A stretch of DNA of 56,700 bases from Escherichia coli (GTDB lineage: Bacteria; Pseudomonadota; Gammaproteobacteria; Enterobacterales; Enterobacteriaceae). The notes under the pieces were generated by a model. That model saw only the letters and a program-made list of their open reading frames with translations. It was not told where the DNA came from and did not search any database. This document shows positions 36,898-41,447 of the stretch, piece by piece. Numbering within the stretch: the first letter of the stretch is position 1; every line of letters begins with the position of its first letter. The DNA is taken from the NCBI RefSeq assembly GCF_003334255.1, contig NZ_QOWU01000034.1; one strand, 5' to 3'. Made by a program: the position numbers and the translations under genes.

Positions 36898-37176
36898 TTA
36901 CTGCTGTGACGCCTGCTGAAACAGGTTTTCCCACATATCGGTCACCAGCGCCTGGTCACGCGGCGACAATTCACCGGCACCAATGGCTTTTTCCAGACTC
37001 TGGCTAACGGTCGTATGCACCGCCTGAGCGGAGTGGTCATCACCACTTTCCAGTTCTGCGATGGCTAATGTCAGGTGGCCACGCAAATACCCACTGGCAA
37101 ACAACTCATCATCACTGGCATGGTCAACCATACCGTCGATTAATGCCAGAATGCGTGATTCAAACTCCGCGATCAT
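36898..37176 (-). CDS. yfcL: Uncharacterised small acidic protein YfcL
   Basis: 92-aa ORF, first gene of a co-directional cluster ending in prmB; recognised as YfcL. Confidence 0.8.
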
Positions 37177-37209
37177 CTTCTTTCCTCATTGTAAAACGTG
37201 GCACCGGCT

Positions 37210-37758
37210 TCAGTTGAGCGCTTCCGGCCACGGGAACTGTTCCGCCGTAAGTTCCGGCGTGTGATAATAATTTTGTAGTGCTTTAATGAAGCGTGCCGGA
37301 CGCTCGGGAATGCCATTTGTCAGATAATCCATCACCTGCGCATGTACCCGCCGTTGAAACACCACACGATCCGGTTCGAAGTCGCCTTCCAGATTGTCGC
37401 AACTGACGTTAAACGGATATCCCGCCGCCACACAGAACAACCAGTCGAGTGCCTGCGGCTTCACTTCAACATCTTCAAACTGGCTTTGCGTTTGGGCATC
37501 ACGCCCATCCGGGCAATACCAGTAGCCGAAATCAACCAGCTCACGGCGCGCTTTTCCGGCAATACACCAGTGCGAAATCTCATGAATTGCGCTGGCATAA
37601 AAGCCGTGGGCAAAGACAATTCGGTTATACGGTACTTCCGCATCAGCAGGAAGATAGATCGGTTCGTCGTCGCCTTTAATCAGACGGGTATTAAATTCAT
37701 CGGCAAAGCAGCTATTAAAAATTTCAATCAACTGCTCATAGTGGTGTGTACTGTTCAT
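37210..37758 (-). CDS. epmC: Elongation factor P hydroxylase EpmC (YfcM)
   Basis: 182-aa ORF recognised as YfcM/EpmC; start overlaps the yfcA stop by 1 nt. Confidence 0.85.
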   Translation of the reverse strand: MNSTHHYEQLIEIFNSCFADEFNTRLIKGDDEPIYLPADAEVPYNRIVFAHGFYASAIHEISHWCIAGKARRELVDFGYWYCPDGRDAQTQSQFEDVEVKPQALDWLFCVAAGYPFNVSCDNLEGDFEPDRVVFQRRVHAQVMDYLTNGIPERPARFIKALQNYYHTPELTAEQFPWPEALN

Positions 37759-38567
37759 TAGTTCATCCCCAACCAGTGGAGGATCTCCTGTCCGTGGCTA
37801 TCGTAAAGTAATTTGGCACTCATCACCGCCGAGACGATAACAATCATCGGGCGGATCAGCTTTTGTCCTTTGCTCAACACCAGCCGTGAACCCATGCGCG
37901 CGCCGAGGAACTGCCCCACCAGCATGACAAAGCCCGTCGCCCAAATCACTTTGCCGCCGAGAATAAACAGCAGCAGACCGCCAATGTTTGACGTTGCGTT
38001 GAGTAATTTGGCGTGAGCCGTGGCTTTGGCGAGGTTAAATCCGCACAGCGTAACGAAGGCCAGCGCGTAAAACGACCCGGCAGCCGGGCCAAAGAATCCA
38101 TCATAAAAACCGACGCAGCCACCGGCTATTAACGCGAAGGGTAAACCGTACATCCGGCGCTGGCGGTCTTCTTCACCTAGCTTTGGCATCAGCAAGAAAT
38201 AGAGGCCGATACAAATTACCAGAATGGGCAAAATCTGCCGTAAGACATCAGCCTGAACGTATTGCACCAGCAGTGCGCCGCTCATTGAGCCGACAAAGGT
38301 CATGGCGATATTGAGTTTCTGATCGCTTAAACTAACCACTTTGCGGCGAATAAAGTAGATAGTAGCGGAAATAGAGCCGCCGCAGGCTTGCAGTTTATTG
38401 GTTGCCAGCGCATTAGCGGGAGACATCCCCGCTGCCATCAATGCCGGAATGGTGAGTAACCCACCGCCACCGGCAATCGAGTCGATAAATCCCGCCAGCA
38501 TGGCGACAAAAAAGAGAACTCCCAGCAACAGCGGGGAAACCATAAACAGGCTATTAAACGTTTCCAT
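37758..38567 (-). CDS. yfcA: TauE/SafE-family inner-membrane protein YfcA
   Basis: 269-aa ORF with about 8 TM helices and Gly-rich helices typical of TauE/SafE. Confidence 0.88.
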   Translation of the reverse strand: METFNSLFMVSPLLLGVLFFVAMLAGFIDSIAGGGGLLTIPALMAAGMSPANALATNKLQACGGSISATIYFIRRKVVSLSDQKLNIAMTFVGSMSGALLVQYVQADVLRQILPILVICIGLYFLLMPKLGEEDRQRRMYGLPFALIAGGCVGFYDGFFGPAAGSFYALAFVTLCGFNLAKATAHAKLLNATSNIGGLLLFILGGKVIWATGFVMLVGQFLGARMGSRLVLSKGQKLIRPMIVIVSAVMSAKLLYDSHGQEILHWLGMN

Positions 38568-39391
38568 TAGATCACGTGCTCATCCAGTAGCGCCTGGCAG
38601 GAAGGCGGCAACGGAGGCGGTGTCTTCTTCTCAGGCTTTGTTGTTCCCGGTTTTGGAGGTTCAAACCAGCTTTGCAGTTCTGCCCCGCAACCATCGCCTG
38701 ATGGCGGTAAAGGTTGATCTTCACACTCCAGACTATCGGCAGGGCAACGTAATCGTACATGCATATGCGCGCGATGCTGGAACCAGGGTCGCACTTTGCG
38801 CAACCAGTCGCGATCGGTGCCCGCATCAAGGCAAAGTTGTTGTTTAATCGCCGGATTAACAAAAATGCGCGTGACGTCTTTGTCCTGGGCGGCGAGTTTG
38901 ATCAAGCTGAAAATTTCTGGCTTCCACAGCGTGGAGACAACGTGTTTACCGTCGCGGGAAACTAAGTCCAGTGCTTGCGGGCGCAAGAGCTGCGCGGAGG
39001 TCCAGCGAGTTTTCGGCAGTTGCAGAAAGATATCGACATCCAGTCCGGTCTGGTGGCTGGCATGACCGCCGTTGAAACGCCCACCAGCGGGCATCCCCAT
39101 ATCGCCAATCAGCACCGTACCCATGCCCAGATTGCTCACCTGGCTACTCAGACGCTGGATAAACATCACCAGATCCGGGTGACCGAAATAGCGACGCTGA
39201 TCGGTACGCATGACCTGATAATGTTCGGACTGTATCGGCAGCGTGTCAGCGCCGACAATACAGCCATTAGAAAAACTGCCTATCGATTGTGCGCTACCCG
39301 GCACAGGTTGGGTTATTTTTTGCCACGGCGTCGCTGCCAGGCTGGCGCTACTGGCAAGCAGAGCCAGCAGCGCAATCGCGGTTTTATTCAT
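38567..39391 (-). CDS. mepA: Penicillin-insensitive murein endopeptidase MepA
   Basis: 274-aa ORF with signal peptide and LAS metallopeptidase His/Asp motifs ([11 protein letters not shown]). Confidence 0.93.
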
Positions 39392-39394
39392 TTT

Positions 39395-40480
39395 TTACCA
39401 GCGTGGAATATCAGTCTTCACATCGGCATTTTGCGCCCGTTGCCGTAACAGGTGATCCATTAAAACGATCGCCAGCATCGCTTCTGCGATCGGCACTGCG
39501 CGGATCCCGACACAGGGATCGTGACGGCCTTTGGTGATCATCTCAACTTCTTCGCCAAAGCGGTTAATGGTACGACCCGGCACGGTAATGCTGGAGGTCG
39601 GTTTCAGCGCCATATGGGCAATGATTTGCTGCCCGCTGCTGATACCGCCGAGAATGCCGCCCGCATGGTTGCTCTGGAAACCGTCTTTGGTGATTTCATC
39701 GCGGTTCTGGCTGCCGCGCAGCGCCACCACGTCAAAGCCGTCGCCAATTTCCACGCCTTTCACCGCGTTGATGCTCATCAGCGCATGGGCGATGTCAGCA
39801 TCCAGGCGGTCAAAGACCGGCTCGCCAAGTCCGGCAGGAACGCCACTGGCAACAACGGTGACTTTAGCGCCGATGGAGTCGCCCTCTTTTTTCAGCGCAC
39901 GCATCAACTCGTCTAACGCGTCGATTTTGTCGGGGTCCGGGCAAAAAAACGGATTTTGCTCGACCTGCGACCAGTCTTTGATATCCAGCGGAATGTCGCC
40001 CATCTGGGTCAGGCAGCCACGGATTTCAATACCAAATTTCTCGGCGAGATATTTTTTGGCAATAGCTCCTGCCGCCACGCGCATGGCGGTTTCGCGGGCG
40101 GAAGAACGTCCACCGCCGCGATAATCGCGCAGACCGTATTTTTGTTCGTAGGTGTAATCGGCATGGCCTGGACGGAAAACGTCCTTAATCGCACTGTAAT
40201 CCTGAGAGCGCTGGTCAGTGTTTTCGATCAACAAGCCAATGCTGGTGCCGGTAGTAACGCCTTCAAAAACACCGGAGAGAATTTTGACCTGATCCGGCTC
40301 GCGGCGCTGGGTGGTATAGCGCGATGTCCCAGGGCGACGACGGTCGAGGTCATGTTGCAGGTCCGCTTCCGTCAGCGGAATGCCTGGCGGAACACCATCG
40401 ACGATGCAGCCGAGCGCCAGCCCGTGCGATTCGCCGAAGGTGGTTACGCGAAAGAGTTGTCCAATTGTGTTTCCAGCCAT
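39395..40480 (-). CDS. aroC: Chorismate synthase
   Basis: 361-aa ORF from ATG 40478-40480 ([20 protein letters not shown] signature); the track begins one codon upstream at GTG. Confidence 0.96.
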
Positions 40481-40514
40481 CACGGCTCCGTTATTGTTGT
40501 GTTTGCGTGTTTAC

Positions 40515-41447
40515 TTAATCTTTATAAATCGCGAAATGTTCTCGTGCGGCAATAAGCTGCTCTTTGGTGAGCATAAACACACCATCGCCGCCGTTATCAA
40601 ACTCCAGCCAGGTGAACGGAACATCCGGATATTGTTCCATAAGATGTACCATGCTGTTGCCGACTTCACAAATCAACACGCCATCATCAGCAAGGTAATC
40701 TGCCGCGTTACCGAGAATGCGACGCGTCAGTTTCAGGCCGTCAGTGCCAGATGCCAGGCCCAGTTCCGGCTCGTGGCGGTATTCGTTTGGCAGGTCGGAC
40801 ATATCTTCCGCATCGACATACGGCGGGTTAGTGACAATCAGGTCGTACTGCACTTTCGGCAAGTCGCGGAACAGATCGGAACGAATCGGAATGACGTTGT
40901 GGATCAGACCGTGTTCTTCGATGTTCTGTTCAGCAACCGCCAGCGCGTCTGGAGAGATATCCACCGCGTCGACTTCTGCATCCGGGAAGGCATAAGCACA
41001 GGCAATGGCGATGCAGCCGCTACCAGTACACATATCTAAAATATGCTGCGGTTGCTTGCTGATAAGTCCGGCAAATTTATTGTTGATCAGTTCACCAATC
41101 GGCGAGCGCGGCACCAGCACGCGTTCATCGACGTAAAATTCATGGCCGCAGAACCACGCTTTGTTGGTCAGGTAAGCCACCGGAATGCGTTCATTGACGC
41201 GGCGGATCACGCGTTCAACAATACGGTGTTTTTCGCTGGAGGTCAGACGCGCGGTGCGCATATCTTCCGGAATATCCAGCGGCAGGTAGAGCGAAGGCAA
41301 CACCAGCTGTACGGCTTCATCCCACGGGTTATCGGTACCGTGACCGTACCAGATATTTGCCGCGCTGAAGCGGCTCACCGACCAGCGCAACATGTCCTGA
41401 ATGGTTTGCAGCTCATTTACTGCTTCATCAACGAAAATTTTATCCAC
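40515..41447 (-). CDS. prmB: Ribosomal protein L3 glutamine N5-methyltransferase PrmB
   Basis: Start trimmed to GTG 41445-41447 (310 aa) preceded by GGAGG; NPPY methyltransferase motif (IVTNPPYVD); the track's 421-aa ORF is an upstream extension. Confidence 0.9.

Follow-up and report, generated by a model that had tools for sequence, protein, structure and literature searches.

The stretch analysed here (the window, 56,700 nucleotides (nt) of the Escherichia coli contig NZ_QOWU01000034.1) carries the six genes prmB, aroC, mepA, yfcA, epmC and yfcL at positions 36,898 to 41,447. This cluster is an already known operon, present in essentially all E. coli and named in the literature. The explanation that in our view probably accounts for the whole is that the operon is expressed mainly as one transcript, that its gene set is a historical mosaic, and that YfcL is tied to the EF-P hydroxylase EpmC and to N, a NAD-kinase-fold gene found next to yfcL outside Enterobacterales. 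In its genes, their order and strands, the smrB and mnmC flanks, a GcvB pairing site and an RNA 3' end associated with repetitive extragenic palindromic (REP) elements, the cluster corresponds to the E. coli operon described previously (PMC9299463, PMC11878033). No difference of substance from the K-12 operon was found, and the two are seemingly colinear with an offset of 2,406,993, as judged from two mapped points. Positions 36000-42500 are 100% identical to several E. coli strains, and at least 80% of this stretch is present in 5424 of 5426 complete E. coli genomes. The cluster itself offers nothing new, since the organism is a textbook one and the post-transcriptional regulation of this operon is already published; the deep conservation of the epmC-(N)-yfcL neighbourhood bears on what EpmC needs and on why EF-P hydroxylation exists though seemingly dispensable.

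Six intact co-directional open reading frames (ORFs) fill the interval exactly, from the yfcL stop codon to the GTG start of prmB, and both the RefSeq annotation of a strain identical in sequence and our reading of the nucleotides place all of them on the minus strand. The first gene in the order of transcription, prmB (40515..41447; 310 aa), encodes the 50S ribosomal protein L3 Gln150 N5-methyltransferase; a GGAGG Shine-Dalgarno sequence lies upstream of its GTG start, and it scores 461.6 bits against NCBIfam TIGR03533 (cutoff 229.7). It is followed by aroC for chorismate synthase (39395..40480; 361 aa; NF003793, 510 bits), mepA for the penicillin-insensitive murein endopeptidase (38567..39391; 274 aa; NF006947, 360.6 bits), yfcA for a TauE/SafE (TSUP) family membrane protein (37758..38567; 269 aa; Pfam and NCBIfam), epmC (yfcM) for the EF-P Lys34 hydroxylase (37210..37758; 182 aa; RefSeq and Pfam) and finally yfcL for a PF08891 family protein (36898..37176; 92 aa; RefSeq and Pfam). 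The identities of PrmB, AroC, MepA and YfcA are supported by NCBIfam equivalogs, and Pfam matches were obtained for YfcL (PF08891), EpmC (PF04315) and YfcA (TauE, PF01925). An initial annotation of this DNA had reported the same six co-directional genes, and RefSeq, NCBIfam and Pfam bear out their identities and intact frames; the order given in its title, with yfcL first, is reversed, the cluster being on the minus strand with prmB at its head.

The 80 best loci of a YfcL-anchored search all belong to Enterobacteriaceae and close kin, a set too shallow for questions of function, and the distant members examined were contigs encoding proteins of 29-49% identity. Most of the non-enterobacterial loci sampled (L082-L093, L094-L173) carry the gene N, of about 375-400 aa, between epmC and yfcL. 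The arrangement epmC-N-yfcL, with or without prmB-aroC upstream, is present in Flocculibacter, Paraferrimonas, Glaciecola and two metagenomic lineages, and was likewise recovered from an EpmC-anchored start from Planctobacterium. Of the 9 YfcL-anchored genomes outside Enterobacterales, 8 have N directly upstream of yfcL; adjacency of epmC could be assessed in 8, and 6 of these have it. In every lineage sampled yfcL follows epmC, N, or both. An N-anchored metagenome scan yielded 80 loci, 59 of them assessable on both sides, which divide into epmC-N-yfcL (32), N-yfcL (6), epmC-N (5) and N alone (16). A rebuilt, relaxed hidden Markov model (HMM) of YfcL confirmed that the absences of YfcL are real, save for one locus where an insertion separates N from yfcL, and most of the N copies lacking YfcL fall in other, more divergent clusters when the N proteins are grouped. 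Within the main N clade (68 members) the next gene downstream of N encodes YfcL in 60 of 64 assessable cases, and the one immediately upstream encodes EpmC in 50 of 61; the epmC-N junctions overlap or measure at most 10 nt in 36 of 50, and the N-yfcL spacer has a median of 42 nt.

E. coli and Vibrio ishigakensis represent a reduced form of this arrangement, in which epmC lies directly upstream of yfcL on the same strand. Neither the 56.7-kb window nor any of the 80 enterobacterial loci contains an ORF of the N family, and the E. coli epmC-yfcL spacer (37177..37209, minus strand; 33 nt, with its own GAGGA Shine-Dalgarno sequence) sits where N lies in most other lineages sampled. The N protein matches Pfam NAD_kinase and NAD_kinase_C, weakly also DAGK_cat, contains a GGDGT motif and has a mean column identity of 67%, and its annotation goes no further than 'ATP-NAD kinase family protein'. 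NadK is not its ortholog, since the NCBIfam NadK and lipid-kinase models reach only E ~1e-3 to 1e-4, far below their cutoffs; the Pfam kinase domains and GGDGT are shared with the ATP-NAD kinase or COG3199-type 'predicted polyphosphate/ATP-dependent NAD kinase'. Searches by sequence returned no solved homologs for N, YfcL or YfcA. The epmC-N-yfcL neighbourhood is without mention in the searchable literature, where YfcL and EpmC appear together only as listed neighbours.

YfcL matches PF08891 with E = 2.3e-33 over residues 4-86, and F26, Y30, G33 and H34 are invariant across 50 diverse members. The family is small: a set of 1.84 billion proteins contains 126 representatives of it at 50% identity. 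YfcL is intact, with 75-100% identity, and adjoins epmC in no fewer than 80 enterobacterial species. Modelled alone it is predicted to form a four-helix bundle, with a predicted local distance difference test score (pLDDT) of 97.2. Two fusions of EpmC to YfcL were found. In that of an enterobacterium (P0276, 286 aa) the epmC stop codon has become a Thr codon and the in-frame spacer is read into a complete YfcL, while A0A240ER32 of Vibrio thalassae (272 aa) is named EF-P hydroxylase in its annotation and shows a YfcL fold in its C-terminal part. The two are independent of each other, and each could be a sequencing artefact. The 33-nt spacer of E. coli is in frame with both genes, so that a single stop-codon change would give such a fusion there too. 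Two other candidates were set aside: P0229 (1786 aa, with six 'YfcL-like' stretches) was rejected as a YfcL relative because it is a repetitive adhesin-like protein, and A0A0A2VYD9 ('yfcA', Beauveria bassiana, 484 aa) was kept out of the fusion evidence because it resembles bacterial contamination with a merged gene model.

EpmC itself matches PF04315 with E = 2e-81 and carries the 2-His-1-carboxylate residues H59, H63 and E98, invariant in the alignment, which were defined as its iron-binding motif (PMC4231759). By this motif the epmC of the cluster encodes the canonical hydroxylase of the EpmA/EpmB/EpmC pathway of EF-P Lys34 modification, a pathway in which the published accounts give no role to YfcL or N. 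The components needed for the hydroxylation of beta-lysyl-EF-P have been described as undefined: EpmC activity required cell filtrate, reached a yield of ~8% in 155 min and was stimulated by NADPH, which EpmC does not bind, and the authors concluded that there are 'other unknown components' in vivo (PMC4231759). According to reviews, the hydroxylation is negligible for EF-P function, and EpmC occurs in only a subset of genomes with EpmA.

From the conserved neighbourhood and the fusions, the most likely role of YfcL is that of a small helical protein, accessory or adaptor, which shares a pathway with EpmC and, where that gene is present, with N. Its step would be the EF-P Lys34 hydroxylation reaction or one built on the hydroxylation. 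YfcL is thus a reasonable candidate accessory factor of EF-P hydroxylation, which bears on the role of the YfcL family. The suggestion of the initial annotation that YfcL might act in translation gains real, if indirect, support from the conserved epmC-(N)-yfcL order and the two fusions and is unproven; the tight spacing on which it had been based lends none, the epmC-yfcL junction being loose.

Several observations weigh against this tie to EpmC. Gene neighbourhood is correlative evidence, and yfcL follows N without an adjacent epmC in Alishewanella, Aeromonas salmonicida and 9 metagenomic loci; N-yfcL is also what one truncated contig carries. The predicted YfcL fold is a generic four-helix bundle, for which the structural-neighbour search returned nothing informative. 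An AlphaFold2 docking model, made with 64 paired EpmC-linker-YfcL sequences and a glycine-serine (GS) linker but with a shallow alignment, no predicted aligned error (PAE) output and no control, gave a predicted template modelling score (pTM) of 0.62, against ~0.64 (182/283) expected for undocked parts; the pLDDT of the YfcL part dropped in this model, and no confident docking was seen. EpmC also forms far more protein clusters than YfcL (at least 7994 vs 646), a count to be read with the short and divergent YfcL being harder to detect. Finally, hydroxylation in vitro worked with an 'essentially protein-free' filtrate.

The main rival to the YfcL-EpmC tie appears to be that YfcL is the partner of N and not of EpmC; in E. 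coli yfcL would in that case stand after epmC only because N was deleted, N appearing to have been lost in Enterobacterales, and enterobacterial YfcL would be vestigial or repurposed. YfcL and N are the most constant pair, both among the YfcL-anchored genomes and in the main N clade, and the N-yfcL loci of Aeromonas and Alishewanella as well as the undocked AlphaFold model fit this possibility. We nevertheless hold it to be the less probable one, as YfcL has been kept intact beside epmC in the enterobacterial species that have no local N, as Vibrio ishigakensis has epmC-yfcL without N, and as both fusions join YfcL to EpmC while no fusion of N and YfcL occurs among the 120 N homologs listed. 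Moreover epmC and N are themselves tightly coupled, so that the three genes are hard to separate.

If YfcL is tied to EpmC, a further step, which we put forward as speculation more doubtful than not, is that YfcL, together with N where it is kept, may be one of the 'unknown components' of Lys34 hydroxylation or of a further modification that builds on the hydroxyl, e.g., phosphorylation by N. Were this true, E. coli would retain, in its seemingly functionless hydroxylation, a truncated remnant of a longer pathway, which would still operate in marine gammaproteobacteria with epmC-N-yfcL. The gene immediately after yfcL in Vibrio ishigakensis, on the same strand, is of the Flavodoxin_2/FMN_red type (NAD(P)H-dependent reductase-like; L092, 9386-9922). 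As NADPH stimulates EpmC activity without binding to EpmC, this neighbour may be relevant; it is a single case from a low-quality assembly.

As to its expression, the cluster is probably transcribed mainly as one polycistronic mRNA that starts upstream of prmB. Published Term-seq data (PMC7815308 supplements), mapped by window = K-12 coordinate - 2,406,993, place minus-strand RNA 3' ends at K-12 2447546 and 2447537, i.e., inside the 3' end of prmB at window positions 40553 and 40544 (73 and 64 nt upstream of the aroC ORF), and a further one at K-12 2443784, which is window position 36791. The last of these lies 107 nt after the yfcL stop codon and ~5 nt beyond the second of two REP-type palindromic elements located between the convergent yfcL and mnmC (36759..36915, minus strand; sub-threshold naRNA4/REP-like matches of 37.7 and 33.6 bits). 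The first element shares bases with the yfcL stop codon region, and the second extends as far as the 3' end of mnmC. The same supplements list no 3' ends for aroC, mepA, yfcA or epmC, an absence from a supplementary table that is not proof. Terminator-like hairpins found in a consensus scan are weak, all intragenic and without reported 3' ends. In a published RNA-seq study epmC, yfcA, yfcL and mepA fall within the same co-expression module. The co-expression proposed in the initial annotation is therefore plausible, considering the lack of a promoter match on the coding strand in our scan, the restriction of the Term-seq ends to the prmB 3' end and the region after yfcL, and the RNA-seq module. 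It is not a strict coupling, since GcvB represses aroC without changing prmB. The supplements list no 3' end between aroC and yfcL that would speak for separate expression of yfcL and yfcA, and the one pair of 3' ends within the cluster lies inside prmB; the stop of some transcripts before aroC at this pair counts against a single transcript.

The uncoupling of aroC from prmB resides in the spacer between them. Repression of aroC by the small RNA (sRNA) GcvB, with prmB unchanged, has been reported (PMC9299463, PMC11878033). The pairing site GCAAACACAACAA (40494..40506, minus strand) lies in the prmB-aroC spacer at -26 to -14 from the aroC ATG and is a 13-nt perfect complement to GcvB nt 78-90 (the R1 seed); in an exact-complement test it was the sole complement of at least 12 nt in the 4.9-kb sense strand. 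This test was used in place of an RNA duplexfold of full-length GcvB against the junctions, which over-extends and does not discriminate. Given this complement and the published repression, the 34-nt spacer is a regulatory site that uncouples aroC from prmB. The prmB-internal 3' ends sit just upstream of the pairing site, and could reflect premature termination or processing linked to the sRNA regulation.

It is also conceivable that the cluster is not one operon and that internal promoters drive most of the expression of yfcL and/or yfcA-epmC, which we consider unlikely. Complex E. coli operons commonly carry internal promoters, the 3' ends inside prmB reveal heterogeneity of the transcripts, and yfcL has its own 33-nt spacer with a Shine-Dalgarno sequence and a TACAAT hexamer, the latter noted by eye. 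This hexamer is only 11 nt from the ATG and has no recognisable -35 element, and a consensus scan returned no sigma-70-like site on the minus strand, including the region upstream of prmB. The lack of reported 3' ends between aroC and yfcL and the co-variation of the genes in RNA-seq likewise argue for the single polycistronic mRNA.

The junctions are tight in the centre of the cluster and looser at its ends. The initial annotation had described spacers of 0-3 nt with overlapping stops and starts, which applies to the three inner junctions: aroC-mepA measures 3 nt, and mepA-yfcA and yfcA-epmC each measure -1 nt with a TAATG stop/start overlap. It does not apply to prmB-aroC (34 nt) and epmC-yfcL (33 nt), true spacers with their own ribosome-binding sites, which bound prmB and yfcL, the latter being one of the two genes that the earlier interpretation concerned. 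In the ~78 enterobacterial species compared, aroC-mepA measures 2-5 nt in 66 of 72, mepA-yfcA is -1 in 59 of 78 and yfcA-epmC is -1 in 55 of 78, while prmB-aroC varies between 19 and 243 nt and epmC-yfcL is mostly 9-33 nt. We infer from the geometry of the inner junctions that they may be translationally coupled. Junctions that are tight or overlap are commonplace in bacterial operons, and no statistical anomaly is involved.

The gene order, with the smrB and mnmC flanks included in the comparison, is invariant in 80 enterobacterial species. In two of these 80 loci the interval between prmB and mepA gave no match to at least 50% of the AroC protein. Outside this group the arrangement changes. 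The one genome of Morganellaceae sampled, Providencia, has prmB-aroC-yfcA-epmC-yfcL and thus lacks mepA, and Vibrio ishigakensis has prmB-aroC-epmC-yfcL with a divergent smrB. In ~90 loci outside Enterobacterales no TauE or peptidase-M74 genes were found near epmC, yfcL, prmB or aroC, and a yfcA in the gap between aroC and epmC was seen in Enterobacterales only. The divergent pair smrB and prmB with aroC downstream has been kept in Enterobacterales, Vibrio and several Alteromonadales-type lineages (L082, L083, L088, L092 and others), and mnmC adjoins yfcL in several distant lineages too. In Paraferrimonas (L083, 5119-6291) and Alishewanella (L088, 4130-5317) a gene for a major facilitator superfamily (MFS) transporter fills the slot after aroC, a membrane transporter of a different family at the place where Enterobacterales carry the TauE-family yfcA.

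The comparison of these gene orders suggests that the smrB/prmB-aroC linkage is older and wider than the six-gene cluster. Both divergent smrB/prmB-aroC and epmC-yfcL with convergent mnmC would be old neighbourhoods in several gammaproteobacterial orders; yfcA would have come to occupy the gap between aroC and epmC in Enterobacterales only, and mepA would be a separate and narrower insertion or loss, while N, elsewhere located between epmC and yfcL, is not present in the enterobacterial loci examined. The gene set thus appears to be a historical mosaic and not a functional module.

The opposite interpretation, close to that of the initial annotation, is that the six genes form a coherent unit in which YfcL and YfcA both act in translation or in the envelope with their operon partners. 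It could draw on the co-directional genes and the tight inner junctions kept across Enterobacteriaceae, on the shared co-expression module of epmC, yfcA, yfcL and mepA, and on surroundings rich in translation genes (prmB, epmC, smrB, mnmC). The functions of aroC and mepA are well defined and unrelated, both yfcA and mepA are missing from every epmC/yfcL/prmB/aroC neighbourhood examined outside Enterobacterales, and GcvB uncouples expression within the operon, so that we regard a coherent unit as highly improbable. For YfcA this view is largely refuted by the lack of conserved linkage, and a role of YfcA in translation or the envelope, as had been suggested, finds no support.

The match of YfcA to PF01925 is full-length (E = 1.3e-48, residues 18-253), and the NCBIfam equivalog of the protein, PRK10621, is itself named 'hypothetical protein'. 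By HMM it is a member of the TauE/SafE (TSUP) family, for which the RefSeq term 'sulfite exporter family' is a family label only. Because the linkage of yfcA is not kept outside Enterobacterales, its co-transcription would give no basis for assigning a function, and membership of this operon is unfit for giving YfcA a translation or envelope role. A more specific version, that YfcA is an envelope protein working with MepA, e.g., in the transport or recycling of a cell-wall-related substrate, is very unlikely in our view. The TAATG overlap of the mepA stop and the yfcA start in the majority of enterobacterial species is consistent with it, as is a published co-evolution model in which the fold of YfcA is that of the undecaprenyl-pyrophosphate phosphatase UppP; Providencia, however, has yfcA in the same place without mepA, and TauE/SafE proteins are generally anion exporters or permeases, as judged from the Pfam name only.

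The cluster is flanked by two genes on the plus strand, mnmC for a tRNA modification enzyme (34771..36777), convergent with yfcL, and smrB for the ribosome-collision endonuclease (41613..42164), divergent from prmB with the interval 41448-41612 between them. The mechanical ORF that contains prmB (41780-40515, minus strand) extends 111 codons upstream of the GTG, to an ATG at 41780, and crosses the divergent smrB start region. This extension is most likely not translated, as the annotated GTG with its GGAGG sequence fits the family HMM, which matches from residue 13. Beyond smrB, and with no relation to the cluster, adjoins a chaperone-usher fimbrial operon of the yfcO-yfcU type on the minus strand (window 42236-43634 and beyond), which encodes a StfH/YfcO adhesin, fimbrial subunits, a chaperone and an usher.

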